From assembly GCA_027310625.1 (NCBI GenBank), contig DAIDAM010000003.1, positions 67,278 to 131,277 on the forward strand: a stretch of 64,000 bases of DNA, in the 5' to 3' direction. The notes below the pieces were generated by a model, which did not search any database, was not told where the DNA came from, and was given only the letters and a program-made list of their open reading frames with translations. Within the stretch, counting starts at the first letter, position 1. Every line of letters begins with the position of its first letter. The translations under genes were made by a program, and so were the position numbers. The DNA is from a bacterium (GTDB lineage: Bacteria; Patescibacteriota; Minisyncoccia; UBA6257; 2-01-FULL-56-20). Shown here one piece after another: positions 5,000 to 42,640 of this stretch.

Positions 5000-5018
5000 G
5001 CTGGTTTCTAATCTCTGG

Positions 5019-5062
5019 TCACTTGTCGCTTGTCGCTTGTCGCTGGTCGCTGGTCGCTAATT
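5019..5062. repeat. 6x heptanucleotide tandem repeat (TGGTCGC/TTGTCGC) at the 3' end of rpsB
   Basis: direct reading of period-7 repeat. Confidence 0.9.
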
Positions 5063-10489: not shown

Positions 10490-11992
10490 CTATCTGATTG
10501 TGCCCCCGCCGAGCATTTCGTATTTCTCTGGTTTCTGGTCTCTGGTCTCTGGTCTCTTATAGTAGAACACAGCCGACTGACCTGCGGCGACGAACTTCTG
10601 CCCCTGCTCAAAGATGAGCAGCGCGGATTTGCGCGGATTAGACGCTGATTTGCGCGGATTTTTATCTGCGTTTATCTGCATATCGTCTGCGGGCATCAGC
10701 GTTGCAGGCGCGAGCGGTTGTCTGTACCTCACCCGCGCCAACACCTTATACCCCTTATTCGCACGAATTAGGGGTATAGTTTCCGAGTTGATGAAATTCA
10801 CATCGTGGAGTTTAATTTCTTTTCTGTACAACGCCGAATTGTCGCTCCCTTCTGCTACCACAAGCGTATTTGTTTCAACGTTTTTCTCAGCAACATAAAG
10901 CGGCTTGAAATCCGTTTTCTGCATAAGTCCGCGTTCTGTCTGTGTAAGTCCGCGATTGGTCATGCCAATATGTCTCTGCCCAATGGTGTAAAAATGCGCG
11001 CCGGAATGCCTGCCGATTTCTTCTCCGGCGGTATTCAAAACCGCGCCTTCTCTCGCGGGAAGATAACCGCCCAAAAACTCGGCGAGCGTAACTTTGCCGA
11101 GAAAGCAAATTCCCTGCGAATCTTTTTTCTCCGCCGTAGGCAAACCGGCTTTTCTCGCCATCGCCCGCACTTCTGACTTCAAATAATTGCCTATCGGGAA
11201 AAGGCAGTGTTGCAATTGCTCTTGCGTCAACGTCCAGAGAAAATATGACTGGTCTTTTTGCGCGTCACGCGCAGCGTATAGTTTATAACCATAACTCGAA
11301 TCTACGAATGTGCGCGAATTTGGCGAATTTAAAAAACTTTTATATTCGTTATATTCGCGCGAATTCGCGATATTCGAATTACGCATAAGCCGCACGTAGT
11401 GCCCGGTCGCCACGTAAATCCCTGCCTGCCGGCAGGCAGGCGCTCCCACGGACAGCGCTTTTTCCAAAAAGAGCCCGAACTTAATTTCCTTGTTGCACAT
11501 CACGTCCGGGTTGGGAGTAATGCCGCGGCGGTAACCGTCAACCATATAAGCGACGACTTTCTTTTTATATTCCTCCTCGAAATCCCAGATATAAAAAGGG
11601 ATTTCGAGTTTGCCGGCGACGCGGCGTGCGTCCTCGGCGTCTCTTTCCGCCTGACATTCATCGTCAAAATTTCCGCGCCCATCCGCGTTGAAATCCGCGT
11701 TAATCCGCGTGTTGGACGAAGTCCAACATTTCATAAAAACGCCGACGACATCGTAGCCATGGTTTTTAAGAAGCATGGCGGCGACTGAGGAATCAACCCC
11801 TCCACTCATTGCTACGAATACCTTTTTTTTACAAGCAAAGCCGCCAGCCTGCCTGCCATAGCCCTCGCCTTGCCGAAGCCGACGGCGAAGCGCAGGTTGG
11901 CGAAGGCGGGACATCCCCGCAAAAACTTTTTCTTTCCGTTTCTTCATGCGCCTATTTTTACATCGTCTTCTCCAATATATCAAATAAAACAA
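10490..11992 (-). CDS. mnmA: tRNA-specific 2-thiouridylase MnmA, with several in-frame repeat-derived insertions and a repeat-derived N-terminal extension
   Basis: SGGVDSS PP-loop, conserved MnmA core; low-complexity inserts (NPRKSASNPRKSAL, ETRDQKPEKYE). Confidence 0.85.
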   Translation of the reverse strand: MFYLIYWRRRCKNRRMKKRKEKVFAGMSRLRQPALRRRLRQGEGYGRQAGGFACKKKVFVAMSGGVDSSVAAMLLKNHGYDVVGVFMKCWTSSNTRINADFNADGRGNFDDECQAERDAEDARRVAGKLEIPFYIWDFEEEYKKKVVAYMVDGYRRGITPNPDVMCNKEIKFGLFLEKALSVGAPACRQAGIYVATGHYVRLMRNSNIANSREYNEYKSFLNSPNSRTFVDSSYGYKLYAARDAQKDQSYFLWTLTQEQLQHCLFPIGNYLKSEVRAMARKAGLPTAEKKDSQGICFLGKVTLAEFLGGYLPAREGAVLNTAGEEIGRHSGAHFYTIGQRHIGMTNRGLTQTERGLMQKTDFKPLYVAEKNVETNTLVVAEGSDNSALYRKEIKLHDVNFINSETIPLIRANKGYKVLARVRYRQPLAPATLMPADDMQINADKNPRKSASNPRKSALLIFEQGQKFVAAGQSAVFYYKRPETRDQKPEKYEMLGGGTIR

Positions 11993-14147: not shown

Positions 14148-14160
14148 ATATTTCTGGTTA

Positions 14161-14640
14161 CTAGTTGCTGGTTTCTGGTTTCTCCGATTTCAACTTTTTC
14201 AGCGCCTCCATTGCAGCAAGGGCGTTGGTAAGTTTGTTCGGTGTCCGGCCGAGACATTTCGCGGTCGCGTCTTTTATTCCAGCCAAAGCAAGCACGGAAC
14301 GCACCGCGCCGCCGGCTTTCAGCCCATGTCCCGCCGCAGCCGGTTTTATTAAAACCCTCGCCGCGCTGTATTTCGCGTAAACTTCGTGGCGAATCGTTCT
14401 GTTATCCTTCAAGTTAAGAGGGAGAATTTTTTTCTTGGCGGCGGACTTTGCTTTGTCCACGGCGTTTTGAACGTCAAGACCCTTCGCAACGCCGACGCCG
14501 ACTCTTCCTTTTTCGTCTCCGACGACAACAGTCGCTCTGAAGCGGAAACGTTTTCCGCCCGCAACGACGCGCGTAACGCGGCGGAGGTCAAGAACTTTCT
14601 CCTTAAATTCCTCTTTTTTGATGTATCTTTTTTCTCTCAT
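14161..14640 (-). CDS. rpsE: 30S ribosomal protein S5; adjacent to rplO with no L30 gene between
   Basis: S5 signature. Confidence 0.93.
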   Translation of the reverse strand: MREKRYIKKEEFKEKVLDLRRVTRVVAGGKRFRFRATVVVGDEKGRVGVGVAKGLDVQNAVDKAKSAAKKKILPLNLKDNRTIRHEVYAKYSAARVLIKPAAAGHGLKAGGAVRSVLALAGIKDATAKCLGRTPNKLTNALAAMEALKKLKSEKPETSN

Positions 14641-17243: not shown

Positions 17244-17312
17244 GTTTTTGTGACGCGTGTCATGTGTCAAGTGTCAGGATTTTCCCTTCTTGATGCCTGA
17301 TACTTGATACAT

Positions 17313-17630
17313 TTATATTCTTGCGCTGCACTTTTTGCAGTACCTTATTTTTTCTTTTACGCCGCCGGCGCTTTCAATGCGGAAGCCGACACGAACCGCC
17401 CTTTTGCAATTCGGACAAACGAGCATCGCCTTTGAGGCCGAGAACGGCCTCGGAACAAGAACCGTTTCCCCTTTCTGACCCTGCTGTTTGGGGCGAACGC
17501 GCTTCTTGTAAAGGTTAATTCCTTCAACGGCGATCATTGAGTCCCCGCTTAAAACGCGTAGAACCTTGCCGCTTTTGCCGCGGTCCTTGCCGCTCATTAT
17601 TTTCACTTGGTCTCCTTTCTTGATTTTCAT
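17313..17630 (-). CDS. rplX: 50S ribosomal protein L24 with a C-terminal CPNC…CKKC zinc-ribbon extension
   Basis: KOW motif plus C-terminal Cys4. Confidence 0.9.
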   Translation of the reverse strand: MKIKKGDQVKIMSGKDRGKSGKVLRVLSGDSMIAVEGINLYKKRVRPKQQGQKGETVLVPRPFSASKAMLVCPNCKRAVRVGFRIESAGGVKEKIRYCKKCSARI

Positions 17631-22480: not shown

Positions 22481-23128
22481 TTACTTTATTCTGTAATGTT
22501 TTTCTATTGTCGGTATAGCCTTTTGGTCAATGAAAACGTTTTTATGTCTCATTATTTCGTAAACATTGAGAGATTCAGGATTCAGAACTTCAGTTTTCTG
22601 AAGATTGGAAGAAGCTCTCGAAATTTTTTTGTTTCCCGAGTTTGGGACAAAAAGAACATCGTATTTTTTGGAATTCTTTTTCATCTCCGTAAGATTTCTC
22701 AAAAGTCCTGCAAGCACTTTTGTTTTCGGCGCTTCTATTTCAAGCGTGTCAAAAAATCTCATTTCTCCGTCCTTAAGTTTCTTTGAAAGAACGCTGAAGA
22801 GAGCTGTCCTTTTCATTTTTTTGTTTATTTTCTGCGAATAATTTCTCTCTTTTGTCGGCCCATGCGCCTTCCCGCCTCCTTTCCAAAGCGGAGAACGGAT
22901 GGAACCGTGCCGCGCGCGCCCGGTTCCTTTTTGTCTCCACGGCTTTCTCCCTCCGCCCCGAACTTCGCCGCGGCTCTTCGCGTGCGCCCAAGGTATCCTT
23001 TTGTTCGCAAGATAAGCATTGACCACCTGCGAAACGAGCGCTTCTCTCCAAGGCGCGCCGAAAACCGCGTCAGGCAAATCGATTTCTCCAACCTTCTCGT
23101 TTTTTAAATTAAATAATTCTTTTTTCAT
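22481..23128 (-). CDS. rplD: 50S ribosomal protein L4
   Basis: L4 signature. Confidence 0.93.
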   Translation of the reverse strand: MKKELFNLKNEKVGEIDLPDAVFGAPWREALVSQVVNAYLANKRIPWAHAKSRGEVRGGGRKPWRQKGTGRARHGSIRSPLWKGGGKAHGPTKERNYSQKINKKMKRTALFSVLSKKLKDGEMRFFDTLEIEAPKTKVLAGLLRNLTEMKKNSKKYDVLFVPNSGNKKISRASSNLQKTEVLNPESLNVYEIMRHKNVFIDQKAIPTIEKHYRIK

Positions 23129-23257
23129 CTAACTTTAAATTCTAAATACGAAATTCGAAATTCTAAACAATATCTAAATTCTAAATTTCAAACGGGTTTG
23201 TAATTTGTGATTTGTTGTTTAGGATTTGTTTCAAATTTAGTGCTTCGTGCTTCGGAT
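23129..23257. repeat. intergenic palindromic element, AAATTCTAAAT…ATTTAGAATTT family; also at 16634-16694 and 63113-63233
   Basis: inverted AAATTCTAAA/TTTAGAATTT arms. Confidence 0.6.
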
Positions 23258-23821
23258 TTATATTTTAGATATCTGTAAAAGTCCTCCGCGCGCGCCGGGA
23301 ACCGCGCCTTTAATCATCAAGATGTTTTTATCCGCGTCCACGCCGGCGATTTTCAGATTTTTTACAGTCACTCTCTCGCCACCCATGCGTCCCGCCATTT
23401 TTCTTCCCGGAAAAACTTTCTGCGGCGCCGTGGGACCGATTGAGCCCGGTGCGCGCCAGCGATTTTTCTGCCCGTGCGTTTTCGGTCCGCCGGCGAACCC
23501 GTGTCTCTTGACTACTCCCTGAAACCCTCGCCCCTTGGAAACACCGATTACCTTCACCATGTCGCCTTCTTTGAAAACCGAAATGTCAATGACATCGCCG
23601 ACTTTGAGGTTTTCCTTGTCACTGGTCACTGGTCGCTGGTCGCTCAATCGGAACTCGCGCCGTTTCTTCCCGTCAGTGATTTGAACTGCTTCATATCCGT
23701 CTTTTTCCTTTGTTCGTAGCAAAGCGACTTTATTTTTGGAAACTTCAACGAGCGTCACAGGAGTGACCTTGCCGTCTTTCCAAACCTGGCTCATGTTCAG
23801 TTTTCTGCCTAAAATAAACAT
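23258..23821 (-). CDS. rplC: 50S ribosomal protein L3, with an in-frame heptamer-repeat insertion (…SDQRPVTSDKE…)
   Basis: L3 signature; CTGGTCA/CTGGTCG tract at 23616-23650. Confidence 0.93.
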   Translation of the reverse strand: MFILGRKLNMSQVWKDGKVTPVTLVEVSKNKVALLRTKEKDGYEAVQITDGKKRREFRLSDQRPVTSDKENLKVGDVIDISVFKEGDMVKVIGVSKGRGFQGVVKRHGFAGGPKTHGQKNRWRAPGSIGPTAPQKVFPGRKMAGRMGGERVTVKNLKIAGVDADKNILMIKGAVPGARGGLLQISKI

Positions 23822-26226: not shown

Positions 26227-26401
26227 TTTTTACTTACTAGACATTAGTCATCAGACATCAGTTAACAGAAGTTTTTGCAATTTTCCGTATTCCTGATTTC
26301 TGATTACTGATTACTGATTTCTGTTTATTTTTACGACCTGTTTTTAAACGGTTCGATAATTCTACTCCTGAACCATACTTTGTCAAGGAGATCTGTGGAT
26401 A
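26227..26401. repeat. intergenic element rich in CATCAG/CTGATT repeats
   Basis: acatcagacatcagttaacag … ctgatttctgattactgattactgatttctg. Confidence 0.55.
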
Positions 26402-28528: not shown

Positions 28529-29003
28529 TGATTTATCGCACGAATTTACGAATCTTTACGAACATACGAATTATTATTAACAATTCTCTTAAAAATAACA
28601 CCTTTAGACGTAAAATTTGCTAGGATGGCGAGTGGCAAATTGCTTGCTTTGAGATAGTTAAAAATCTGCTCCGCGTTATGACGAGAAAACGCCACACCCT
28701 TTTTAATCTCAATTATTACTTTTTCTTCAACTAAAAAATCGCATCTTTGTCTGCCAACTGCTTTACCATGAAACATAACGGGCAACAAAACTTCTCGCCT
28801 AAATTTTAATCCTGCATCCTCGAATGCTAATGCCACTGCGCGTTGATAATAATTTTCCGAGTAACCAGAGCCGAGTGCATTGCTGACATCGAATAGCGTT
28901 CCAACAATTTTGTAGCTCAGCTCGGGCTCAATAATGTCGCTCCTTCGCAACTTTCTCTCGCTCATAATGATTCGTAAGTTCGTAATATTCGCTTATTCGC
29001 GCG
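28529..29003. repeat. ACGAATTT-family palindromic element whose two arms (28529-28560 and 28966-29003) are separated by an inserted GxxExxY gene
   Basis: left arm atcgcacgaatttacgaatctttacgaacatacgaatt; right arm attcgtaagttcgtaatattcgcttattcgcgcgat. Confidence 0.6.
28546..28965 (-). CDS. GxxExxY family protein (PD-(D/E)xK-like; the family is associated with 23S rRNA intervening sequences)
   Basis: [21 protein letters not shown]…[13 protein letters not shown] motif pattern of the GxxExxY family. Confidence 0.75.
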
Positions 29004-31961: not shown

Positions 31962-32750
31962 TTGATTGTGGATAAGTTCTTTCAGTTCGGCTATTCTGTG
32001 CCGTATAGTTGGAAGTGTATGGATTATTCCCAACTAAAAAAGAAGGCGATTGCCCTCAGAAAGCAAGGGTTAAGCTACAGTGAAATACAGGGGAGATTGG
32101 ACAGCGCTGTTTCGAAAAGCACGCTTAGCTTATGGTTGAAATCCGTACTCCTCAAACCCGAGCATCGAAAACGGCTTTACACCAAGCAAATTCAAATCCT
32201 TTCCCTTGGATCTCAATCACAGAGAGAGCGAAGACAAAGAGAAATAAACGAAATAATTGAGCGGGCGAAGAAAGAAATCCATACTCCACTTTCTCAAGAA
32301 ACCTATCGTTTCTTCGGAGCCGCGCTTTATTGGGCGGAGGGCGGCAAAACAAAAAACTTTGAAATCACTAATTCTGATCCTTCGTTAATTGCCTTTATAG
32401 TAAAATGGTTTAATGATATTTTCGGCGTGGCGCCGAATAATTTAAAAGCTCATCTTAATCTTTACCCGCAACAGAACGAAAATGATATTAAAAGGTTTTG
32501 GTCAGACATTACGGGAATACCTAAGAAAAATTTTGGCAAAAGTTTTATAAAGCCGCCGAATAAGGGCTATAAGAAAAATAATCTCTATTATGGAACGATA
32601 AGAATAAGAGTTATGAAAGGAACTGACATGAAGCATAGATTATTTGGGTGGATTCAAGCCGCTTTACAAGACATAAATACAAAGGCAGAATTAGTACAGA
32701 GAAAGTGGATACGACTCAGCAAAGTAGCGCGCCCGCCTGTAAATCTATAA
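31962..32750 (+). CDS. HTH-containing protein with a possible LAGLIDADG-like endonuclease motif (FFGAALYWAEGGK); hypothetical
   Basis: N-terminal HTH-like segment (LSYSEIQGRL); LAGLIDADG-like glycine-rich motif; located between tRNA loci. Confidence 0.45.
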   Translation: MIVDKFFQFGYSVPYSWKCMDYSQLKKKAIALRKQGLSYSEIQGRLDSAVSKSTLSLWLKSVLLKPEHRKRLYTKQIQILSLGSQSQRERRQREINEIIERAKKEIHTPLSQETYRFFGAALYWAEGGKTKNFEITNSDPSLIAFIVKWFNDIFGVAPNNLKAHLNLYPQQNENDIKRFWSDITGIPKKNFGKSFIKPPNKGYKKNNLYYGTIRIRVMKGTDMKHRLFGWIQAALQDINTKAELVQRKWIRLSKVARPPVNL

Positions 32751-32751
32751 C

Positions 32752-32823
32752 CCCCCATAGCTCAATTGGCAGAGCAGCGCCCTCTTAAGGCGAGTGTTTC
32801 AGGTTCAAGTCCTGATGGGGGGA
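32752..32823 (+). tRNA. tRNA-Lys (anticodon CTT), probable; C1-G72 start and a 3-bp D-stem make the fold slightly atypical
   Basis: acceptor cccccca/tgggggg, anticodon loop ctcttaa, T-loop ttcaagt, A73. Confidence 0.6.
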
Positions 32824-32830
32824 CAAAATC

Positions 32831-35053
32831 TCACTCCAAATGAAGTTTCCTTTCGAATTCCGCAAGCTTTTCCGCGAGTAAGGGACGGGCTTTGAGATTT
32901 TTGTCTTTCTCTAAAATTTTCACCGCCGCATCTCTCGCCGCTTTCACCATTTCGAAATCCTGCAAGCCGCGCATAGCGACGTCGGGCAAACCGGTTTGCT
33001 TTTGTCCGATGAACTCTCCCGGTCCGCGGATTTTCAAATCTTTTTCTGCGAGTTCGAACCCGTTTTTCGCTTCAACTATCGCTTTTAGACGGTCACTCGT
33101 GGTTTTTGCGGGTGAGTCCGTGAAAAGAAAACAAAACGACTGATGTTCGCCGCGCCCCACGCGTCCGCGGAACTGGTAAAGCTGGGCGAGTCCAAACCTG
33201 TCCGCGCCTTCGATGAGCATTATCGTCGCGTTCGGAACGTCAACGCCGACTTCTATCACCGAGGTGGAAACGAGAACGTCTATTTTGCCTTCCCGAAACG
33301 CTTTCATTACCGCTTCTTTTGAAGGTTTTCCGTCCGAGGCGAGACCTCGCCCGCGTTTAGCGCGTGCGGGCATTTGCCCGTGAAGCATGCCGACTTTCAA
33401 ATCGGGAAAAACGTTCTTGGAAAGTTTTTCGTATTCTTCCTTTACTGCCTTGGTTTCCCAAGGCAACGCGGATTTACGCTGATTGTTATCAGCGCGGATC
33501 TGCGCGGATGTATCCGCGTCTGTCCGCGTGTCCGAGGATTCTATCCTCGGACAAATGACGAACGCCTGCCTTCCTTTTTTTATCTGGCCGCGGATGAACT
33601 GATACGCTTTGTCGCGGTTCGCGGGCGCGACGATTTTTGTGATTATCGGTTTTCTTCCCAAGGGCAATTCGGTGATAGTGGAAATATCCAGGTCGCCGAA
33701 AACCGTGAGCATCAGCGTGCGCGGTATCGGCGTCGCGCTCATCGACAACAGGTGTGGAATCAATTTAGTTTCGCGGTTTTTGTGTAATTCAGCGCGCTGC
33801 CTAACTCCAAAGCGATGCTGCTCATCAATTATCACAAGAGCAAGTTTGTCGAAGCGGACATCTTTTTGGATTAAAGCATGAGTTCCGGCAATTACTTTTA
33901 TTTTTCCGGCGATAACTCCTTTTTTAAACTCGTTCTTCGAAACTAAACTCTCCAAATCATTCTCAAAAAATACTTTTGCTTCTTTGGAAACGAGGAGTCC
34001 CACTTCCGGCTGTTTCCGAAGCGGCAGACGGGCGAAAATTTTTTTGAGCGTCCCGAAATGCTGGCGCGCGAGAATTTCCGTCGGCGCCATGAAAGCGCTT
34101 TGAAAGCCGTTTTCGGCGGCGACGATGGCGGCAACGGCGGCGACAACGGTTTTTCCCGAACCGACGTCGCCCTGCAACAGGCGGTTCATCGGTTTCGGCT
34201 TCCCGATGTCCTGAATGATTTCCCAAAGCGATTTTTTCTGCGACAAAGTAAGTTTGAATGGCAGTGCCTCCGTTATTTCTTTCAGATGTTCAATTTCAAT
34301 TTGAATCGGCTGCGCTTTTTCCTCCGCGAGTTTCATTTTTTGTCTGATGTTGAAAAGCTGGAGAAGAAAAAGGTTCTCGAACGAAAATCTTTTCTTGGCG
34401 GCGAGCGCCGCTTCGAGAGTTTTCGGGAAATGAACGTCGCGGAGCGCCTCGTTTATTTCCGGAACGCCGGCGGAGTCGAGAATTTCTTCCGGAATCCACT
34501 CGGAAATTTCGCCGACGCTTTTCAGAATCGGTTGAATCAAAAACCTGATGCCCCTTGAAGTAAGTCCTCTCGTCTCGGGATAAACGGGCACGAGCCGCCC
34601 GGTATGCCTCATTTCTTGTCCCCGGTCTCTGGTCGCTGGTCGCAAACCGATGAGTTCGTACGCCGGATGCGAAAGATAAATTTCGCGTTCGCCGAGCGAA
34701 ACCTTGCCGGAGAAATTCGCTTCCCGTCCGGGTCGAAGCGTGTTCAAAAGATACGGCTGGTTGAACCACACCGCTTTTATTTCGCCGGTGTCGTCGGCAA
34801 TTATCGCGTCAACTATAACAAAACGCCGCCGGAAAGTGCGGCGGATTTTTATGTCGCGGACGACGCCATGCACCGTCGCCTGCATGCCGGGTTCGAGGTT
34901 CGCTATCGGAACGATTTCCGAAAAATCCTCGTAGCGTGACGGAAAATGAAAAAGCAAATCTCTTATCGTAAAAATCTCGAGTTTCTCCAGTCGTTTCAAA
35001 AATCTCGGCGGAATTCCTCTTATTCCCGAAAGCGGCGTCAAAAGGTCAATCAC
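32831..35053 (-). CDS. recG: ATP-dependent DNA helicase RecG, with repeat-derived in-frame insertions
   Basis: helicase motifs (GDVGSGKT, DEQHRFG, SATPIPRT), wedge domain; inserts RPATRDRGQEM and DTRTDADTSAQIRADNNQRKSAL. Confidence 0.92.
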   Translation of the reverse strand: MIDLLTPLSGIRGIPPRFLKRLEKLEIFTIRDLLFHFPSRYEDFSEIVPIANLEPGMQATVHGVVRDIKIRRTFRRRFVIVDAIIADDTGEIKAVWFNQPYLLNTLRPGREANFSGKVSLGEREIYLSHPAYELIGLRPATRDRGQEMRHTGRLVPVYPETRGLTSRGIRFLIQPILKSVGEISEWIPEEILDSAGVPEINEALRDVHFPKTLEAALAAKKRFSFENLFLLQLFNIRQKMKLAEEKAQPIQIEIEHLKEITEALPFKLTLSQKKSLWEIIQDIGKPKPMNRLLQGDVGSGKTVVAAVAAIVAAENGFQSAFMAPTEILARQHFGTLKKIFARLPLRKQPEVGLLVSKEAKVFFENDLESLVSKNEFKKGVIAGKIKVIAGTHALIQKDVRFDKLALVIIDEQHRFGVRQRAELHKNRETKLIPHLLSMSATPIPRTLMLTVFGDLDISTITELPLGRKPIITKIVAPANRDKAYQFIRGQIKKGRQAFVICPRIESSDTRTDADTSAQIRADNNQRKSALPWETKAVKEEYEKLSKNVFPDLKVGMLHGQMPARAKRGRGLASDGKPSKEAVMKAFREGKIDVLVSTSVIEVGVDVPNATIMLIEGADRFGLAQLYQFRGRVGRGEHQSFCFLFTDSPAKTTSDRLKAIVEAKNGFELAEKDLKIRGPGEFIGQKQTGLPDVAMRGLQDFEMVKAARDAAVKILEKDKNLKARPLLAEKLAEFERKLHLE

Positions 35054-35165
35054 AGCCGCCGCATTATACGCGGTTTCATCGCAAACTTCAACTTTACTCG
35101 CTCATCTGATAAAATTCCCTGAATGCCGGGAAGTGGAAATTCTGCTGCCGTGTTTCAGCACGGCA

Positions 35166-35181
35166 CTATGATATAGCATAG
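35166..35181. promoter_or_regulatory. CTATGATATAGCATAG near-palindrome in the recG/DUF5674 divergent intergenic region; same GCTATAGC-type core
   Basis: near-perfect inverted repeat next to a GC hairpin (35139-35158). Confidence 0.4.
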
Positions 35182-35271
35182 CGACGTTCCATTTGTTATC
35201 TGCGTTAATTGATGCACTAACACGGTTAAGAAGTCTTTCATTAAACAAAACAGAATTTTTACCACCTGAAA

Positions 35272-35622
35272 ATGGAAATAAAAATAGTGAAAGAGCCAAT
35301 CAGCCGGAAGGAACTTGTTGAGATGGCGAGCGAGCAATTCGGGGACGTCGTGAAAGTGGTTGTTGACGTCGCGCAGGGGATTATGGCGGTCGGCGGCGAG
35401 CTTCACTCCGACGAAGAAGTTCTGCTGATGGAAAAAGAAAATTCCAAGAGAGAAAACACGTGGGGAATCAACATTTACCCCAAAAAACCCGTGAATGAAT
35501 GGATTGAATTTGATTCCATGATTAACATCAAGCCGTCGCTCGGCAATCGCTCGCGAATAGTGGAAAACGAAAGCGCGCGGGAAACGATAAAAAAAATAGT
35601 CGCTAAACTCGTCATTGACTGA
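35272..35622 (+). CDS. DUF5674-like hypothetical protein
   Basis: 116-aa ORF; family recognised only weakly. Confidence 0.5.
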   Translation: MEIKIVKEPISRKELVEMASEQFGDVVKVVVDVAQGIMAVGGELHSDEEVLLMEKENSKRENTWGINIYPKKPVNEWIEFDSMINIKPSLGNRSRIVENESARETIKKIVAKLVID

Positions 35623-35950
35623 AATGCCGATACACGAAGAACTGGCCGCGGGAAAATGGCGGGAGTTGTCGCTTGCCGAACAGCTCGGAAACGTCGGCAG
35701 CGAAGTTTTCCGCGCCTCGCGCTGGAAAGACAAGGACGAAAAATTGTTCCAAAGCGCGGTTGAAAAAGCGCTGGAACTTTTTGACTTGACGCTCGCCGAC
35801 CCGCGCTGGAAAGGGCGCTACCGGGAAATCGCCCGCGCGAGGGAGATCTTTTGCGACGCTTTTCTCGGCGATAATCTCTACGGGGGCTCGATAAGAGGTT
35901 TATTGAATTATTTCGACGTGTTCGCGGCGGCGGGAAGAAAGCAGGTTTGA
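35615..35950 (+). CDS. hypothetical protein; weak MazG-like NTP-pyrophosphohydrolase resemblance
   Basis: ORF overlapping the previous gene by 8 nt (operon-like). Confidence 0.4.
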   Translation: MTEMPIHEELAAGKWRELSLAEQLGNVGSEVFRASRWKDKDEKLFQSAVEKALELFDLTLADPRWKGRYREIARAREIFCDAFLGDNLYGGSIRGLLNYFDVFAAAGRKQV

Positions 35951-36111
35951 CTTACTGCGAAATAGTCGCAATCACGATTTAATGATAGTGAATCAGTTAT
36001 TAGTTATAAGTTACTAGTTATCAAAAATTGGCGACCGGCGCCAAAGCGAACGGAAACGGACAATCGGGGATAAAAAATTTTGCTTCAGCGGTTGGCGACG
36101 ACTGCATCAAA

Positions 36112-36321
36112 TTATAAATCATCCGGCATGAGCCCGGTGTGCTTTGCAATCCTGCTTAACATGCGGGGTCCGATTTCCTCGCGTTCGTGAAAAGCGAAAG
36201 TTACATTCGGCCAACCCGGTTTTGCCAATATTCTATGCGAACCGCGCTGCCGCTTTATCCGCCAGCCGATAGACGCCAAAGCTTTCAACACGCGCGATGC
36301 CTTAACGGCCCGCCACTCCAT
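36112..36321 (-). CDS. hicA: HicA family toxin (YcfA-like mRNA interferase); the ORF extends to 36378 but probably starts at MEWRAVKA
   Basis: KASRVLKALASIGWRIKRQRGSHRIL matches the HicA core. Confidence 0.7.
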   Translation of the reverse strand: MEWRAVKASRVLKALASIGWRIKRQRGSHRILAKPGWPNVTFAFHEREEIGPRMLSRIAKHTGLMPDDL

Positions 36322-36535
36322 GAGAAAATATTTTTGAAACTGGGAAAGGAAACTTTCCTTGCTCCGCGCTGTCGGCAAGGGTTCTCAAAGCCACGGCGTA
36401 AAGTTTACGAAGCGCTTCTTTTTTGGTCCTGCCGTAAGCCATGACGCCGGGCATCTTCGGAATTTCGGCGATCCAACGTCCGTCATTCTCGCGGTCAAAT
36501 TCAACTTTTAAGTTTTTGCTATTTGTCAAAGCCAT
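36302..36535 (-). CDS. hicB: HicB family antitoxin
   Basis: WIAEIPKMPGVMAYGRTKKEALRKL matches the HicB/UPF0150 fold pattern; directly upstream of hicA. Confidence 0.7.
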   Translation of the reverse strand: MALTNSKNLKVEFDRENDGRWIAEIPKMPGVMAYGRTKKEALRKLYAVALRTLADSAEQGKFPFPVSKIFSHGVAGR

Positions 36536-36813
36536 GTTTCCGATTACGTAATTAAAAGCATTCTGTTGGTTTCCAAAACCAAAAAAAGCGCATCCTTGAG
36601 GTTTTCTTTAATTTCCTTCTCTTTTATATACTCTATATACTCCAGTAAACTGAACGTTAGACATAATTTGATGCTAACAACCCGCGAAAAAAAGTCAACT
36701 ATGCGCATTGCGGAATCTCTCAAACAACTTTAGCGGACTACCTCGGGGCGGAGAAAGTTGTCGGCGCGGGGACGGGAGTGGTTGGGGTCGGAGCCGCCGC
36801 CACTCCTACACAA

Positions 36814-37434
36814 CTATATTCTTCCCGCTTCGTTGCTGAAAAACGATTTAACTTCTTTCCAATCCAAGGGTTTGAGCATCTTCGGCATCGGCTCCGCATC
36901 GGCATCATCGAAATATGTCAAACTCTTTTTTATATGCAGCAAGTTGAATTCAAGCGAAGAGTATTTTTTTCGGAACAGCGCGAGAACGTCGTCCAGCGAC
37001 GCCGTTTCCTTGATGATGAAATACAAGTCAATGAAGTCGCGCTTGGCTCCCCTTGCGGAAATGGCGTCTATTTTCATGCAGGCGATGTCGCGGATATCGG
37101 CAAGCCGAACGCCGCCGAAATGCGCCGATGAGAAAAGAAGCGGATAATGATAGCCGATAAAAGACACTTTTGTTTTTTCGAAAACGCCGATTACCGTTTG
37201 CTCGGCGCGTTTCTCCAGCCGGAAACTTCCCAACTCGGAAAGCCGCGAAATCAACAAGGAATCGTTGAAATCGCGTTCCGCAAAGAAATCCAGGTCGCCG
37301 GAAATTCTGTGCCCGAGATAAAGCGCAACCGCCGTTCCGCCGGCGAGATAAAATTCATTTATGCCGATTAAATTTCTAAGCAGAGAAATCGCCTTCTGCG
37401 AATTGCTCGGCAAAACCTCCGGGTGAAAAGTCAT
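36814..37434 (-). CDS. nucleotidyltransferase AbiEii/AbiGii toxin family (type IV TA)
   Basis: LAGGTAVALYLGHRISGDLDFF motif. Confidence 0.75.
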   Translation of the reverse strand: MTFHPEVLPSNSQKAISLLRNLIGINEFYLAGGTAVALYLGHRISGDLDFFAERDFNDSLLISRLSELGSFRLEKRAEQTVIGVFEKTKVSFIGYHYPLLFSSAHFGGVRLADIRDIACMKIDAISARGAKRDFIDLYFIIKETASLDDVLALFRKKYSSLEFNLLHIKKSLTYFDDADAEPMPKMLKPLDWKEVKSFFSNEAGRI

Positions 37435-37458
37435 CTTGCGGTGCTGTGAAAAATCGTA

Positions 37459-37701
37459 TTATTGACGGCTCAAAACCAACTCCCAAAACTTGCGGCTTTT
37501 GGGAGAAATGTTCTTTCCGGCTTTCAGCGCCGAAATAATGTCGTCTTTGGAAAAATTTTTTATCAGCCATTTGCCGGCTTTCTCGTCGCCCAATTCCAAC
37601 AGCCGTTCCAAAACGTACCTTTTGTGCTTGCGAACGTTTATTTTTTTGAAATCGGCGTCCCAAAAATATTTTTCAACGGCTTCCCTTCCCGCTATGTCCA
37701 T
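37459..37701 (-). CDS. small protein upstream of AbiEii; putative cognate antitoxin/partner (DUF6922-like)
   Basis: 80-aa ORF 24 nt upstream of the toxin gene. Confidence 0.4.
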   Translation of the reverse strand: MDIAGREAVEKYFWDADFKKINVRKHKRYVLERLLELGDEKAGKWLIKNFSKDDIISALKAGKNISPKSRKFWELVLSRQ

Positions 37702-37838
37702 AACGATAAAATTATACCAACCTTTCGAAGGAAAAACAAGCGCGCGTGCCTCATCGGGAAGTCGGATTCCTTAGGCCGATTTCCTTCGTCAAATCGGCCG
37801 CTGGCCGTTAGTGGAATTATTTATGGCTTAAGGAAGGA

Positions 37839-37860
37839 CTAAGGAAGTCCGACTTCCTAA
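37839..37860. repeat. REP-like palindrome (ctaaggaagtccgacttcctaa)
   Basis: member of the TTAGGAAGTCGGACTTCCTAA family. Confidence 0.7.
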
Positions 37861-37876
37861 ATGTTATAATTACAGC

Positions 37877-38578
37877 ATGACGAGACCGCGAATAATTCGG
37901 AACGAAATTTACCATGTCCTTAACCGTGGCGTAGATAAGCGAGCAATTTTCTCAGACGATAACGACCGCCTGCGGTTTATTCATAACCTCTTTGAGTTTA
38001 ACGACACCGCACCTGCACCCAATCTCGCCTACCATCTCGGCAAAAAACAATCTAAGGAAGTCGGACTTCCTAAGATTGAGAGGAGACGGCGGGAACTTTT
38101 GGTGGAAATTCTCGCGTTTTGCATGATGAAAAATCACTATCATCTTTTGGTCAGGCCGAAGGCTGATAATTTTCTAACGTTATTTATGAGAAAACTGGGA
38201 ACAGGGTACACCAATTATTTTAATCAAAAATATAAGCGGAGCGGAGCGCTTTTCCAAGGGAAATACAAAGTGGTGCACATTAACAATGATAGACATTTTA
38301 TTCATCTCCCCTACTACATTCACTTTAATCCATTAGACGGCTTTGCTCCGAGTTGGAGAGAAAAGGAAATAAAGGACCACAAAAAAGCAATGGAATTTTT
38401 GGAGAACTATCGCTGGAGCAGTTTTCCGGACTATATCGGCAGGAAAAATTTTCCTTCAATCACGCAAAGAGAATTTTTACTAAAGTTTTTCGGCGGCCCG
38501 GAGGAATACAAACGCAAAACGACAGAATGGCTAAAAGCAATCGATTTCGAGGCAATACACGACGTTGCACTAGAATAA
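37877..38578 (+). CDS. REP-associated tyrosine transposase (RAYT, IS200-like Y1 transposase); contains an internal REP copy at 38052-38074
   Basis: HxH motif (NHYHLLV) and catalytic Tyr region (LPYYIHFNP); flanked by REP palindromes. Confidence 0.8.
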   Translation: MTRPRIIRNEIYHVLNRGVDKRAIFSDDNDRLRFIHNLFEFNDTAPAPNLAYHLGKKQSKEVGLPKIERRRRELLVEILAFCMMKNHYHLLVRPKADNFLTLFMRKLGTGYTNYFNQKYKRSGALFQGKYKVVHINNDRHFIHLPYYIHFNPLDGFAPSWREKEIKDHKKAMEFLENYRWSSFPDYIGRKNFPSITQREFLLKFFGGPEEYKRKTTEWLKAIDFEAIHDVALE

Positions 38579-38585
38579 TTAATAA

Positions 38586-38606
38586 TTAGGAAGTCGGACT
38601 TCCTAA
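38586..38606. repeat. REP palindrome TTAGGAAGTCGGACTTCCTAA (perfect)
   Basis: perfect 21-bp palindrome. Confidence 0.8.
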
Positions 38607-38623
38607 GAAAAAAACAAGCGGCG

Positions 38624-38878
38624 TTAGTCGTAAATGTCTTTGCGATGGCCAATGGCAAAAAATACCGCTTTATCGTCTCTAAAATAAAAAAGCGCCCGAT
38701 AGCGGCGTGTGATACGAAAAGAAAACACGCCGGGAAGTTCTTTGTTCCTTTTGGTGTGCAATCTTGGGTCGAGCCAATTTTTCTTGAAGATGTTTTCCTG
38801 CCGATTGAAAAGTTTCCTTATTTCCGAGGGTAATTTACCTAAATCACTGACAAAATCCGGTGTCTTATGGACAACCAT
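38624..38878 (-). CDS. RelE/ParE family toxin
   Basis: …FRITRRYRALFYFRDDKAVFFAIGHRKDIY fits the RelE/ParE C-terminal pattern. Confidence 0.7.
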   Translation of the reverse strand: MVVHKTPDFVSDLGKLPSEIRKLFNRQENIFKKNWLDPRLHTKRNKELPGVFSFRITRRYRALFYFRDDKAVFFAIGHRKDIYD

Positions 38879-38900
38879 TTTTGGTTTTTTAATGCCTGAC

Positions 38901-39089
38901 TCAGGAAGATTTTACGCTCTTGAGATAATTTTTCCTGATTTGAGAAGAGTTCTTATATTCTTTCAAACTTTCTTCAGGAATCAAAAGCAAAAACTTTCCG
39001 AGCTGGTCGCGGATAGCCCTGATTTCAACCAAAAGGTTCTTCAAGACAATGCCCTGCTCTCTATTTTCAGTTGTAGTTTTAGTGGTCAT
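38901..39089 (-). CDS. putative antitoxin for the downstream RelE/ParE toxin
   Basis: 62-aa ORF immediately upstream of the toxin. Confidence 0.4.
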   Translation of the reverse strand: MTTKTTTENREQGIVLKNLLVEIRAIRDQLGKFLLLIPEESLKEYKNSSQIRKNYLKSVKSS

Positions 39090-39184
39090 AGTGATATGGT
39101 AGCAAAACTACAAACGTACAGCAAGTTTTTCTGCTACCATTATATCACAATTGTTGCTTAATGGTAACGGGTAATTATTTGTGG

Positions 39185-39206
39185 CTTAGGAAGTCGGACT
39201 TCCTGA
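39185..39206. repeat. REP palindrome copy
   Basis: cttaggaagtcggacttcctga. Confidence 0.75.
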
Positions 39207-39209
39207 ATA

Positions 39210-39458
39210 TCATCTCGGATGTTTCATTATCGTTAAAATTCTGTAAGCGTCTTTCTCGATTGTAAAATAAAATCTATAGCTCCTGCTGATTCGCGCCTGC
39301 CAAACATTTTCTGCTTCATCGTATTTCTTGGCGCGTAGCGAGGGATGCATAAAATTCTTTGAAAGCAAGGAGAACTGCTTATCGGCTGCTTTCTGCAGAT
39401 TTTTGGGCAAGCCGTTGTAATCGCGAACAGCCCTTTCTGAAAAACTTAACCTCATCAT
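39210..39458 (-). CDS. RelE/ParE family toxin
   Basis: …WQARISRSYRFYFTIEKDAYRILTIMKHPR. Confidence 0.7.
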   Translation of the reverse strand: MMRLSFSERAVRDYNGLPKNLQKAADKQFSLLSKNFMHPSLRAKKYDEAENVWQARISRSYRFYFTIEKDAYRILTIMKHPR

Positions 39459-39472
39459 CGGCTGGAACTACT

Positions 39473-39694
39473 TTATTCAGCATCCAGTTTAGCCAATGAT
39501 TTCTTGAATTCCCTGACAGTTTTGAACGGGCCCGAAAAACGGCCGGCCGCGAAATCCGCCAGTCCTTCATTAATTGCTTTATTAATCAAATTTTGTCCCT
39601 TACTCGATATCTCTGCCTTTTTCGCCTTGAAAGCTCGGAGGGGGATTTTCACAATCAGATATTTCAAAGTTTTTTCTACCGTCACCTGCGGCAT
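39473..39694 (-). CDS. ParD/RHH-like antitoxin
   Basis: 73-aa ORF upstream of the toxin; C-terminal segment (…INEGLADFAAGRFSGP…) resembles ParD. Confidence 0.5.
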   Translation of the reverse strand: MPQVTVEKTLKYLIVKIPLRAFKAKKAEISSKGQNLINKAINEGLADFAAGRFSGPFKTVREFKKSLAKLDAE

Positions 39695-39745
39695 ATTTCA
39701 ATGTTAACAAGGACGCTGCTCTACGTCAACAATAATGCTTTATGG

Positions 39746-39767
39746 CTTAGGAAGTCGGACTTCCTTA
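39746..39767. repeat. REP palindrome copy
   Basis: cttaggaagtcggacttccttag. Confidence 0.75.
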
Positions 39768-39993
39768 GAGCGCTTCACTAGTTATGTTCCTTGAAATTAC
39801 GGTTTAGTCGGAGGCGGCGTGTTCACAATCGGAGCCGGAACGGGACCGGCAACCGGAGCGACCGCGGGATTCGGAGATGTTGATATCGCGAGCATTGGTA
39901 TTACGGAAGTTCCTCACGGAGTTGTCGGCGGCGGAACGTTGCCCCTGTGGCTGCCCAATCAGCTTTGTTAATAATATGTTGCAAAAGACCCTA

Positions 39994-41952
39994 TTATCTG
40001 TAGCACTGGTATATCACGTGCGTGGCTATATCTTGCGTGTTATATGACAACACGGCAGAAGAAAAACCAGACGGGCAGGAGCACCCCGACGTGAGCGGAT
40101 TGGCTCGCGTGCAACCGCCGCCCGTATTAGTTTCGTACAAGCCCCCGAAGCCGCCCTGTACGGACGTCGGCGGGTTGCTTGCGGAGTAAACTCGGTTGCC
40201 GGCGTCGTAAACTCCCGTTGATCCATTGATATTGCCTGTAACATCAAGTTTATATCCCGGCCCCGTCGTCCCGATGCCGACGTTGCCGTTATTATCTATC
40301 CAAAGTCGGCTAGTATACGTACCGGTTCCGCTCATTGCGTCAGTAGTGCCAATGGAAAAGCCGTATCCTGGCGATGCAGTTCTACCGTAAACAATTCTCA
40401 TGACTGCATCTGCACCGTACGCAAGATATCCCCAATTTCCTGTGTCTACTCCTGTGCCTCCGTAAACGATAATTCTCGCTTGCGTGTATGGGCTCGAGTC
40501 CGCGGGTGCGCTATTACGAATCAGCCCCAGCGAACCAGTAGTGGCGCTTTGAGCGCCTCCGACTGGACCAACATCTAATTTGTATTGCGGCCCCGTCGTC
40601 CCTATCCCGACGTTGCCGCCTTGGATAACTGTTTTTGTAGTGTTGGTTCCACCCATATACACAGGCACTGCTGGGCTAGTTGCTCCACTAGCAAAGTAAA
40701 ATCCGCCAGCATCAGCGCCCGCTAATATTTCGCTGTTAGCTCCTGTATATAGATAATTTCCGATTTTAACGTTTCCGTTCACTTCCAATTTCTGGCTCGG
40801 TCCCGTCGTCCCGATGCCGACGTTGCCGCCGTTTGTAATTGCAAACAACGTTGAGAATGTCCCATTTGACGTCGGGGCACGTCTAATATAGAAACTGTCA
40901 GGACCCGCACCTTCACCTAAGATGCCGCCCAAAGCCATGTGCCATGATGGCAGAGAAGTATTCGCAGTGTTCACATATAAACTTAGGTTGTTGTAATTAC
41001 TTACCGAGCCGGCATTTGTTGTTATCTCTGAATAAGAATTGTTATATCCTCGTAACCAAATAGTGTTATCGGCGCCGTTAATGCCAAAGTATGAGTTGCT
41101 ACCTCTTACATCTATAATCCCTGCAGGCCCTGTCGTCCCGATGCCGACGTTGCCGCCGTTTTTGAAGGTTATTGCGCCGCCATCGAATCGCAAATCGCCG
41201 CCGCTATTTTCAATCGAATATGCCTTTATGCCCGGCAAATCCAATGTAATGCGCGGACCACTACTATCAACTGCAAATATATTTGCATTGTACCAGGTAT
41301 CTTTTCCTCCCGCAGAAACATAACCGCTCGCTGAAACGTTCGCGGGAAAGCTGTAATTCCCTCCGCCGGTGTTCGCCCCGAAACTGCCCGCGGAGACGTT
41401 GGCGGCGCTGACACTGCCGGAGTAATTGGAGCCGGAGATTGTGCCGCCGGCGGTGATGCTTCCAGTAACGTAGACGTTGCCTCCCCCTTGCGCCGTGGTC
41501 GTTCCGACGGCAATGCCGTTCGCCTTGAGGTCAAGAGTGGTGAATATCGGTCCATTGACAAAGAGGGAGCCAACGGATGGAGCTACTCCCACGTTCGGAA
41601 TCGTGGTCGTTGAACCCGTCTGGTTGCTCGCGGTTATCGCGCCGCCGATGGAGACCGAACCGTCGCTTCTCACCGTGAATAAGGGGCCGGTGTTGAGGTT
41701 GAGAACTTTTATCGCGAAATAGCTCGAACCGGTGGAGGTGCCGACGATGAGAAGTTTCGTGTCCGATTGCGTCGTGGTCGTTCCTATGGAAAGGTTTTTT
41801 GAGGCGTCAAGACCTATCGCGCCCTGCCCGATGCCGGCGGACTGAGAGGGGCCGATGAAGTTTTGGGCACGCGCCGAAGGCGCGGCCAAGAAACTGGTGG
41901 AAACTGTGAAACTAATGGAAATTATTAGCAGAAATTTATGGAAATTTTTCAT
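39994..41952 (-). CDS. large secreted beta-helix/fibre-like protein with repeated GGNVGIGTTGP(x)KL(D/E)V motifs (tail-fibre-like)
   Basis: signal peptide; Gly/Thr/Asn-rich repeats; four copies of the NVGIGTTGP motif. Confidence 0.65.
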   Translation of the reverse strand: MKNFHKFLLIISISFTVSTSFLAAPSARAQNFIGPSQSAGIGQGAIGLDASKNLSIGTTTTQSDTKLLIVGTSTGSSYFAIKVLNLNTGPLFTVRSDGSVSIGGAITASNQTGSTTTIPNVGVAPSVGSLFVNGPIFTTLDLKANGIAVGTTTAQGGGNVYVTGSITAGGTISGSNYSGSVSAANVSAGSFGANTGGGNYSFPANVSASGYVSAGGKDTWYNANIFAVDSSGPRITLDLPGIKAYSIENSGGDLRFDGGAITFKNGGNVGIGTTGPAGIIDVRGSNSYFGINGADNTIWLRGYNNSYSEITTNAGSVSNYNNLSLYVNTANTSLPSWHMALGGILGEGAGPDSFYIRRAPTSNGTFSTLFAITNGGNVGIGTTGPSQKLEVNGNVKIGNYLYTGANSEILAGADAGGFYFASGATSPAVPVYMGGTNTTKTVIQGGNVGIGTTGPQYKLDVGPVGGAQSATTGSLGLIRNSAPADSSPYTQARIIVYGGTGVDTGNWGYLAYGADAVMRIVYGRTASPGYGFSIGTTDAMSGTGTYTSRLWIDNNGNVGIGTTGPGYKLDVTGNINGSTGVYDAGNRVYSASNPPTSVQGGFGGLYETNTGGGCTRANPLTSGCSCPSGFSSAVLSYNTQDIATHVIYQCYR

Positions 41953-41971
41953 TTTAGTTTCTAAAAGTTTC

Positions 41972-42415
41972 TTAGTTTCTACGAGTTTCCTTATCCTTTA
42001 TTACCCTATAGGTTGACGATATAAAGTTCTGTAATTTCAGCGACGCCTTTTCGGCAATCACCTTATATTCGGAGTAAGATTTCTTGTCGGCAATTTTGTT
42101 TCTTTCATTCATAAGCTCAAGCCAATAATCATTTGCCTCCATTAAAGAACCGCGGGCATTGTAAAAAAACTTTATCTTGTCCAAGTAATGAAATCTTCCA
42201 TAACCCTCCGCCACATTAGCACCGAAAGAATCTGTTGCTGTAATAAATTGGTCACCCATCGTTTTTTTATCCTGCCAATTTAATCTCTCGTATATTTTCC
42301 ATCCAACCTTTGATAATTCTCTGGCTAATTTATAAATTTCCAAATCCTGTAACTTGATGTAATTCCTTTTAGTTTCCACGAGTTTCTTAGTTTCAATCAG
42401 TATCCTAATTTCCAT
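41972..42415 (-). CDS. four-helix-bundle protein (TIGR02436-type, associated with 23S rRNA intervening sequences)
   Basis: …FGANVAEGYGRF…LMEANDYWLEL…; flanked by GTTTCTTAGTTTC direct repeats. Confidence 0.8.
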   Translation of the reverse strand: MEIRILIETKKLVETKRNYIKLQDLEIYKLARELSKVGWKIYERLNWQDKKTMGDQFITATDSFGANVAEGYGRFHYLDKIKFFYNARGSLMEANDYWLELMNERNKIADKKSYSEYKVIAEKASLKLQNFISSTYRVIKDKETRRN

Positions 42416-42637: not shown

Positions 42638-42640
42638 AAT

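Follow-up and report, generated by a model that had tools for sequence, protein, structure and literature searches.

Heptamer arrays in operon spacers and essential genes of a Patescibacterium resemble the arms of intervening-sequence-like elements

Why would a bacterium with a reduced genome carry tandem repeats of 7 nt, a length that is not a multiple of three, inside the genes for its ribosomal proteins and elongation factor G (EF-G)? The question is raised by a 64,000-nt stretch of Patescibacteriota DNA (class Minisyncoccia; GenBank assembly GCA_027310625.1, contig DAIDAM010000003.1, positions 67,278–131,277 of the forward strand), referred to here as the window. An initial annotation of this DNA described heptamer arrays lying in frame in many essential genes, likened them to the STRR heptamers of cyanobacteria, and proposed an intragenic element class with regulatory or phase-variation potential. 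STRR heptamers were reportedly described by Mazel in 1990, and a 2007 study by Mrazek et al. is said to have found heptameric repeats over-represented in bacteria; we know of no accepted origin or function for such tandem repeats. On balance, we think it probable that the heptamer tracts in the window are arms, or orphan half-arms, of stem-loop elements resembling intervening sequences, which slip in copy number and survive in genes where the translated loop is harmless.

All array counts refer to the window, with tandem calls made by Tandem Repeats Finder and by a mismatch-tolerant scan. The census of exact runs scanned periods 2–24, counted period-7 runs with at least 11 matched positions and used 20 dinucleotide-preserving shuffles as control. 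It found 13 exact period-7 runs against 0.0 in the shuffles, and the other periods had no exact runs save two at period 6, so the enrichment that the initial annotation implied is real. The mismatch-tolerant scan gave 35 period-7 arrays of 2.1–5.9 units each. Their lengths, 15–41 nt, do not follow the multiples of 21 nt that had been supposed for in-frame copies. As annotated, the period of 7 is constant across arrays and the unit sequence varies, with GACCAGN, GAACTTN, AAATTCN and AATCAGN as unit families and no G-runs. Sibling array families of periods 8 and 10 exist in this genome, and the 'ATTCGGA tracts' of a glycosyltransferase-like (GT2) gene, which had been taken for heptamers, are spaced at 8–10 nt. 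Nineteen arrays are coding (coding sequence being about 86% of window bases) and 16 are intergenic or straddle gene ends (about 14%), an intergenic density around five times the coding density. The picture of an intragenic class is therefore right for the 19 coding arrays and incomplete for the rest: intergenic DNA is the denser compartment, about half of the arrays form inverted hairpin pairs, and the same structure encloses genes of the 23S_rRNA_IVP family (hereafter IVP). An Rfam scan of the window placed no known RNA family over any array, finding only five tRNAs and no rRNA.

The proteins of the window are singletons at 90% identity clustering, and its EF-G, with 73–75% identity to the nearest species representatives, places it in the Parcubacteria group of Patescibacteria. 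Period 7 was again the commonest exact period in a set of fusA loci that covers 80 species and 1.33 Mb (31 runs, versus 24 for period 6 and at most 3 for any other). These runs were clustered in certain Patescibacteria, one Yanofskybacteria contig (L009) having 16 arrays within 22 kb, and the nearest relatives in the set had no period-7 arrays. Across these genomes the unit sequences differ and the period is the same.

An assembly or sequencing artefact might be suspected in a metagenome-assembled contig in which one gene, tsaD, looks broken. However, Logan assemblies of three independent runs matched the window at 99.9–100% without indels over about 16 kb that include at least 10 arrays; because these independent assemblies reproduce the sequence wherever they overlap it, the arrays are not products of assembly. 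Similar arrays also occur in complete plasmid records of cultured cyanobacteria. For the regions covered by independent assemblies the artefact explanation is effectively refuted, and overall we consider it extremely improbable.

Some 20 of the 35 arrays lie close to another array in inverted orientation and pair with it into a hairpin; the remainder are solo and do not fold. The better-folding strand of the hairpins has z-scores of −2.7 to −6.0 relative to shuffled sequence. The hairpins outside coding sequence include the following.

17257–17311, no strand assigned: hairpin of two inverted heptamer arrays in the rplX–rplE spacer (+ strand −28.4 kcal/mol, z −6.0).
23128–23254, no strand assigned: long hairpin of AAATTCN heptamers in the rplC–rplD spacer.
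26238–26323, no strand assigned: hairpin of inverted AATCAGN arrays in the fusA–tuf spacer (z −3.5 and −3.7).
55432–55488, + strand: ORF-less hairpin of GACCAGN units downstream of hsp20 (−27.0 kcal/mol, z −5.5).
57796–57873, no strand assigned: hairpin of inverted AAACGGC and GCCGTAA arrays between two + strand genes.
63118–63234, no strand assigned: long hairpin of AAATTCN and AAATCCN heptamers in the rpsM–rpsK spacer, its left arm in the family of tsaD insert site 1.

Only two hairpins are coding, the N-terminal insert of valS and the site-3 insert of tsaD, and in these both arms are translated. Spacers of the ribosomal operons also contain a dispersed element of period 8, TATCGCACGAATTTACGAATYTTTACGAACATACGAATT, whose copies are half or full hairpins (near 17640, 19196, 23835, 28535, 29479 and 54181); independent Logan contigs end at these copies.

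In two of the elements the loop between the inverted arms holds a gene.

44719–45268, − strand: stem-loop element with an IVP gene (S23p, a four-helix-bundle protein) at 44745–45170 (IVP1), between inverted heptamer arms at 44719–44767 and 45220–45268.
41890–42461, − strand: sibling element with a second IVP gene at 41972–42415 (IVP2), between inverted period-10 arrays.

The IVP1 arms consist of GAACTTN units, are 48 nt long and 77–89% complementary, and form a duplex of −56 to −59 kcal/mol (−45 to −59 kcal/mol across the arm duplexes); the gene between them matches PF05635 (E 1.2e-32) and TIGR02436 (3.6e-31). A second kind of cargo is the PD-(D/E)XK_3 (GxxExxY) domain, two complete copies of which (46656–47015 and 47481–47855) lie in frame inside the 852-aa GT2 ORF (46386–48944, + strand), each between inverted short-repeat arms of period 9–10. 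The orthologue of this ORF in a syntenic relative (L087, GCA_030650255.1; 646 aa) has one such domain. A free-standing PDDEXK_3 gene (28546–28965, − strand) stands between rpsG and fusA in the str operon, and its last codons come from a period-8 repeat.

The same layout is found in other bacteria. The syntenic relative L087 has it around both of its IVP genes, and a metagenome scan with the IVP protein yielded 57 loci (GC 29–67%), of which 54 were analysed. Among 60 arrays in their IVP flanks, 47 had period 7, eight period 8, four period 10 and one period 9. Period-7 density was 9.7 per 10 kb near the IVP gene and 1.3 per 10 kb over the rest of those contigs, a 7.5-fold difference. We scored flank inversion by a local-alignment test, counting matches at z > 4: among non-redundant loci, 37 of 41 had inverted matches between the 5' and 3' flanks and 5 of 41 had direct ones. 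Typical arms are GTCGTTGGTCGTTAGTCGTT upstream and AACGACCAACGACTAACGAC downstream, and in soil contigs such as L111, L109 and L118 the IVP gene is flanked by the CAGCGACC units that make up the rpsB and rplC arrays of the window. rRNA was absent from all 20 of the metagenome IVP loci checked for it.

Plasmids extend the pattern to cyanobacteria. Cyanobacteria accounted for 22 of the 25 IVP records that a tblastn search of PLSDB plasmids returned, with 10 from Nostoc and 4 from Calothrix. We analysed 17 plasmid loci, mainly of Nostocales and 14 of them cyanobacterial, of which 15 had inverted flanks with z above about 4 and 10–11 had period-7 arrays on at least one side. Arm pairs include GGGTGTG/ACACCCT in Nostoc punctiforme, TCAGAAT/ATTCTGA in Trichormus variabilis and AGGGAAC/CTGTTCC in Nostoc C052; on a plasmid of Anabaena sp. 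90 one arm has about 37 units of ACAGGTG and the other four of CTGTCAC, and the IVP-flanking arrays of a Pseudanabaena plasmid reach about 15 units. These elements often lie within single operons, between cas6 and cas4 (Anabaena sp. 90, Pseudanabaena), cas10 and cmr3 (Picosynechococcus) or ribonucleotide reductase subunits (Nostoc edaphicum). PDDEXK_3 gave only three plasmid matches, with inverted flanks or nearby repeats and no clear tandem arrays.

The likeness to cyanobacterial STRR thus takes a concrete form, in that plasmids of Nostoc, Calothrix and Anabaena have IVP genes flanked by just such inverted heptamer arrays. Heptameric simple sequence repeats (SSRs) of Xanthomonas and Nostoc have been described as over-represented in bacteria, with several unit sequences per genome, a preferred size of about four units and a position near gene ends in intergenic DNA; they are under-represented in coding sequence and uncharacterised except for a G-quadruplex proposal for GGGNATC (PMC4692102). 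Like them, the window arrays are tandem 7-nt units with several unit sequences in one genome; unlike them, they have units that are not G-rich (there is no GGGNATC class) and belong to a Patescibacterium. As to position, the window arrays are about five times denser between genes and in several cases run across stop codons (rpsB, rpsE), yet 19 of the 35 lie in coding sequence and are translated.

The architecture itself is that of the rRNA intervening sequences with an S23p ORF in Leptospira and Coxiella, in which complementary ends form a stem around a PF05635/TIGR02436 ORF. The 23S intervening sequence of Coxiella burnetii has two to three GACAGAT heptamers, variable in number between strains, before the S23p start codon, and its 28-bp stem is cleaved by RNase III at the first of these repeats (PMC4990558). 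The window elements differ in lying in operon spacers and protein genes, with no rRNA, and in that most copies are ORF-less or single arms. In the explanation that we favour, the basic form would be a pair of inverted arrays, mostly of period 7 with siblings of periods 8 and 10, that folds into a stem-loop. In the cargo form the loop would hold a 23S_rRNA_IVP (S23p, Avd-like) gene, or a PD-(D/E)XK_3 gene with arms of period 9–10. This would be the rRNA intervening-sequence architecture relocated to operon spacers and the inside of protein genes, most copies having no ORF and many being orphan single arms. By analogy with the rRNA case, the paired arms may, once transcribed, be substrates of RNase III.

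The arrays could instead be cis-acting sites in a stricter sense, each 7-nt unit being read by one subunit of an oligomeric protein on RNA or DNA, as in an operator or a packaging signal. The candidate reader would be the toroidal, pentameric IVP/Avd-like protein; the part of the Coxiella paper that recounts a Xanthomonas structure gives S23p as a homopentameric ring (PMC4990558). Consistent with such a role, arrays flank IVP genes in many phyla, their size is narrow, mostly 27–29 nt or about four units, and the period is kept while the sequence drifts. However, the modal size of about four units is not five, unit sequences vary greatly even within one genome, which has only two IVP genes in 64 kb, and co-variation of unit and protein would be expected from common descent as well. 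We regard this possibility as improbable.

How, then, do such arrays come to lie in genes? The window has arrays of the following kinds in coding sequence and at gene ends, apart from those of tsaD, which are treated below.

5000–5062, − strand: array of AGCGACC/AGCGACA/AGTGACC units filling the rpsB–tsf spacer, its 5' part encoding the rpsB C-terminal tail, with the TGA stop inside a unit.
10525–10557, − strand: solo array of AGAGACC (4.4 units) in mnmA, residues 479–489 (KRPETRDQKPE), an 11-aa excess in the C-terminal beta-barrel domain.
14151–14183, − strand: array of AGAAACC/AGCAACT across the rpsE stop codon and the rpsE–rplO spacer, similar to the rpsB array.
23618–23644, − strand: solo array of AGCGACC/AGTGACC (3.9 units) in a variable loop of rplC (SDQRPVTSD), identical in Logan contig L083.
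28268–28294, − strand: solo array of ACCAGGC (3.9 units) in the G-domain loop of fusA that precedes DTPGH (TRNQAPGTR).
34624–34643, − strand: weak solo array of GCGACCA (2.9 units) in recG, with almost no net insertion.
43004–43029, − strand: solo array of GCGACCG/GCAACCA in the hypothetical ORF 42951–43418.
46077–46103, − strand: translated GAACTTN-family array forming the N-terminal leader of a pilin-like protein.
51018–51094, + strand: in-frame hairpin of two inverted arrays, AGTTCGR and AACCTCG, at the valS N-terminus (−29.6 kcal/mol, z −3.1), absent in L087 and L089.
52099–52128, + strand: solo array of GAGACCG (4.3 units) in valS (RDRRPETGD), a loop deleted in L087.
53711–53740, + strand: perfect solo array of AGACATC (4.3 units) in valS (KDIRHQTSDIR), replaced in L087 by a period-10-type insert.

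In-frame arrays were indeed present in rpsB, rplC, fusA, mnmA, valS and tsaD, as annotated; valS has in addition the pair at 51018–51094, and tsaD has four arrays. The rpsB array (5018–5058 in Tandem Repeats Finder, with 5.9 copies, a unit of 7 nt and 94% matches) had been assigned to the 3' end of the gene. Its sense (−) strand, AGCGACC/AGCGACA, does encode the last 13 residues of ribosomal protein S2, the tail LATSDQRQATSDK, but the array also occupies the entire rpsB–tsf spacer, and the stop codon falls within a GTGACCA unit. The recG tract exists too, although at 2.9 units it leaves RecG only about four residues longer than the solved Thermotoga maritima protein.

Orthologue alignments, the check that had been suggested for insertion into loops, place the coding arrays of fusA, rplC, valS and tsaD in frame in variable loops, that of rplC within a variable segment of uL3. 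The fusA loop, which follows FWTPTY, is absent from most bacteria and from solved EF-G structures and varies in length among Patescibacteria. Many fusA relatives are shorter by exactly 7 residues (21 nt, three units), and in the Yanofskybacteria relative L009 this loop holds another heptamer array, AGCCATC (SHQPSVISHQ). At the three valS array sites, the relatives L087 and L089 have no insert or an unrelated one. In mnmA, PF20258 spans 45 aa at the array against 34 profile positions.

Some features of the coding arrays point to a filter on what a gene can accept. Because a heptamer array cycles through all three frames, its units matter as stop-free sequence in every frame, and in 17 of the 19 coding arrays the majority units are stop-free in all three; none of the 19 brings a stop codon into its actual reading frame. 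In all nine solo GACCAGN coding arrays the sense strand is the one rich in purines and nearly free of T (two-sided binomial p ~0.004), and the encoded peptides are rich in T, S, D, R, Q, P and E. In the favoured explanation, copies in genes would be those that met a permissive loop or tail, had no stop in three frames and presented the purine-rich strand with its hydrophilic coding as sense, and they would be translated as low-complexity loops. We rejected the idea that the solo coding arrays are hidden hairpins: those of rpsB, rplC, fusA, mnmA and valS (52099 and 53711) had z-scores of −1.2 to +0.95, and their best 'partners' within 700 nt were unrelated GC-rich stretches.

Some in-frame inserts in these proteins are of other kinds. 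ValS is 1103 aa long and contains a complete His_Phos_1 (cobC-like) domain in frame inside the synthetase core (52371–52904, residues 503–680), which is shared with the L087 orthologue (914 aa) and missing from that of L089 (724 aa); inserts found only in the window protein are one of 74 aa (residues ~726–835) and a GC-rich one of 34 aa near the C-terminus. Period-10 repeats, GCGCGGATTT and ATCAGCGCGG, lie at 10621–10679, 11305–11376 and 11681–11710 in mnmA and at 33466–33509 in recG, and their in-frame translation gives the motifs NPRKSA and QIRADNNQRKSA. Peptides of this sort, such as NADxxADERR and QRKSA, occupy insert sites in the EF-G, TsaD and ValS of relatives.

Selfish repeats lying in frame in conserved essential genes, at sites that tolerate loops, are reportedly known from Rickettsia as palindromic elements (Ogata et al., 2000); these are said to be dispersed, about 100–150 bp long and of conserved consensus. 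The window arrays resemble them as in-frame inserts at permissive sites of conserved proteins (fusA, rplC, valS, tsaD), but have no ~100–150 bp consensus, only 7-nt unit families being common to them, and the solo arrays are not palindromic.

Repeats in the genes of Borg elements have unit lengths divisible by three. The window arrays are like these in being nucleotide tandem repeats translated into low-complexity hydrophilic segments; they are unlike them in their 7-nt unit and in that the same arrays are mostly non-coding hairpin arms. Selection at the protein level, favouring the repeats for the hydrophilic, disordered loops that they encode, would account for the composition of the peptides, for the nearly T-free sense strand with its uniform orientation, and for TsaD insert sites that are conserved and translated in many relatives. 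It has a precedent in the passages of the Borg account that propose that tandem repeats create disordered protein regions (PMC9879509). However, the same unit families are about five times denser in intergenic DNA, where they also form hairpins that encode nothing, relatives have unrelated repeat types at the same protein site, and a 7-nt period has no rationale at the protein level. Such selection is, in our view, an improbable origin for the arrays.

The clearest record of how arrays change comes from tsaD.

49192–49458, + strand: four arrays in tsaD, AATCCGG at 49192–49211, CAAATTT at 49215–49239, ACCAGAG at 49334–49353 and AAATCAG at 49435–49458.

The second and fourth arrays are each one unit short, which splits the gene into three reading frames: the N-terminal part, to 49250, is in frame 0, the conserved core (ending VNHLEGH) in frame 2 and the rest, from ~49460, in frame 1. 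Adding one CAAATTT and one AAATCAG to these arrays restores a single 409-aa ORF that aligns without gaps to orthologues, including at both junctions, one of them KTANQKSEIRNQKRKNLGFHASNLRFPAI, in accord with the annotation's point that out-of-frame copy numbers would break genes. In the window contig, tsaD has therefore lost exactly one unit at each of two arrays; these independent deletions are direct evidence that slippage moves by whole units, and it follows that arrays change in whole-unit steps. Arrays in the proposed elements would accordingly gain and lose units by replication slippage, and in a gene any change that is not a multiple of three units would break the frame. The three tsaD insert sites are common to many Patescibacteria TsaD proteins (57–66% identity), where they are translated in frame as related repeat-encoded peptides. 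A look-up across 5.8 billion protein clusters turned up no intact tsaD allele, the best match being 66% identical; the region 47.4–50.2 kb lies outside the coverage of the independent contigs, and tsaD is seen only in its broken form, in the window contig.

We also considered programmed −1 frameshifting, as the CAAATTT array has an in-frame A_AAT_TTC slippery site that would give the right frame. We rejected it as the main explanation: the second shift has no slippery site, and one-unit additions match the orthologue length better than a frameshift product does.

Slippage of this kind is also what plain simple-sequence contingency loci would show, in which arrays would arise de novo by slippage and persist for the switching or tuning of expression that a change in copy number brings. 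Like the phase-variable loci of host-adapted pathogens, the arrays lie within ORFs and have a unit not divisible by three, so that whole-unit slippage shifts the frame, as in tsaD with its two frame-breaking deletions; furthermore, the Coxiella heptamers vary in number between strains and many fusA relatives differ by exactly three units. The hosts, however, are single-copy housekeeping genes (rpsB, rplC, fusA, valS, mnmA, tsaD, recG), in which an off state would be expected to be harmful, and not genes with surface, restriction–modification or environment-facing functions. Between assemblies of 2–3 runs, which are consensus contigs from one study, we saw no copy-number difference at the at least 10 arrays covered, among them those of rplC, four in valS and those at 44.7–46.1 kb, and exact-protein look-ups and cluster listings for copy-number variants gave only identical copies or singletons. 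Copy numbers are low (3–6 units), no intact tsaD allele came to light, and the inverted pairing, the cargo genes and the recurrence of the period across phyla would be left unexplained. The regulatory or phase-variation potential proposed at the outset thus finds no support here, and we judge that contingency loci are unlikely. The elements would instead be selfish or neutral, and not adaptive switches. Some strain-level variation does exist although the repeat arrays are identical: in one of three samples (SRR5161788, contig L084), C>T at 44366 splits a 185-aa cupredoxin-domain gene (44064–44621) into ORFs of 85 and 94 aa.

Several observations weigh against the explanation by stem-loop elements. 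Only 4 of the ~35 window arrays adjoin an IVP gene, and neither tblastn nor a custom HMM found IVP genes near the arrays of the 80 fusA loci, with none, for example, within 22 kb in array-rich L009. What ties the solo coding arrays to the cargo elements is therefore a common set of unit families and a common architecture, no insertion event having been observed, and the 21-nt differences in fusA fit expansion in place as well as they fit insertion. As for a miniature inverted-repeat transposable element or another transposon, inverted arms are present in the window elements; no target-site duplications, empty sites or presence/absence polymorphisms were found, among relatives of at most 66% protein identity, a divergence too great for empty sites or duplications to be defined. 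In five of eight hairpins (17250–17318, 23126–23258, 49425–49500, 57790–57878 and 63112–63238) the strand antisense to the flanking genes folds better, by 5–11 kcal/mol, so that mismatches are A·C in the mRNA and G·U in the antisense strand, which fits awkwardly with a function in mRNA. Nor does the stem-loop model account for the 7-nt period. With these points in the balance, we still think that the solo coding arrays may derive from, or be seeded by, hairpin elements.

A broader generalization can be entertained more tentatively. Inverted heptamer arrays could be the cis-acting arms of widespread intervening-sequence-like elements outside rRNA, which carry IVP or PD-(D/E)XK_3 genes and spawn more numerous copies that have no ORF or a single arm; these would explain much of the heptamer excess in bacteria, STRRs included, and in Patescibacteria would have colonised essential genes in frame. 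We hold this to be a serious possibility, somewhat short of probable. As far as the searchable literature shows, such a class of elements is undescribed so far. In the open literature, to which our search extended and not to subscription sources, we found no paper tying heptamer repeats to IVP genes beyond the Coxiella element and none on Patescibacteria, and GxxExxY, PDDEXK_3 or S23p together with repeats led only to the Coxiella (PMC4990558) and Rehm (PMC4692102) papers.

One feature of the window concerns its replication. GC skew and AT skew change sign at ~32000–46000, where gene orientation turns from mostly − to mostly +, which suggests a replication origin or terminus near there.

The window combines known kinds of element, namely intervening sequences, STRR-type heptamers and in-frame selfish repeats; the added interest lies in the cross-phylum link between arrays and IVP genes, and in the colonisation and breakage of essential genes in a genome of the Candidate Phyla Radiation (CPR). 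The heptamer puzzle is thereby tied to a concrete structure, stems around 23S_rRNA_IVP/S23p genes outside rRNA in several phyla, and an old descriptive puzzle becomes open to testing, through the processing of the elements by RNase III, the binding of IVP and the mobility of the elements. In this reduced-genome CPR bacterium, repeats are translated in ribosomal proteins, EF-G and enzymes of tRNA modification and charging, and the near-universal tsaD appears to have been knocked out by one-unit slippage. This bears on the annotation of CPR genomes, in which split genes and unusual inserts are common, and on lineage-specific protein loops. If the explanation is true, the proteomes of small-genome Patescibacteria would gain bulk from such elements, and their genes would occasionally be inactivated by the slippage of a single unit.

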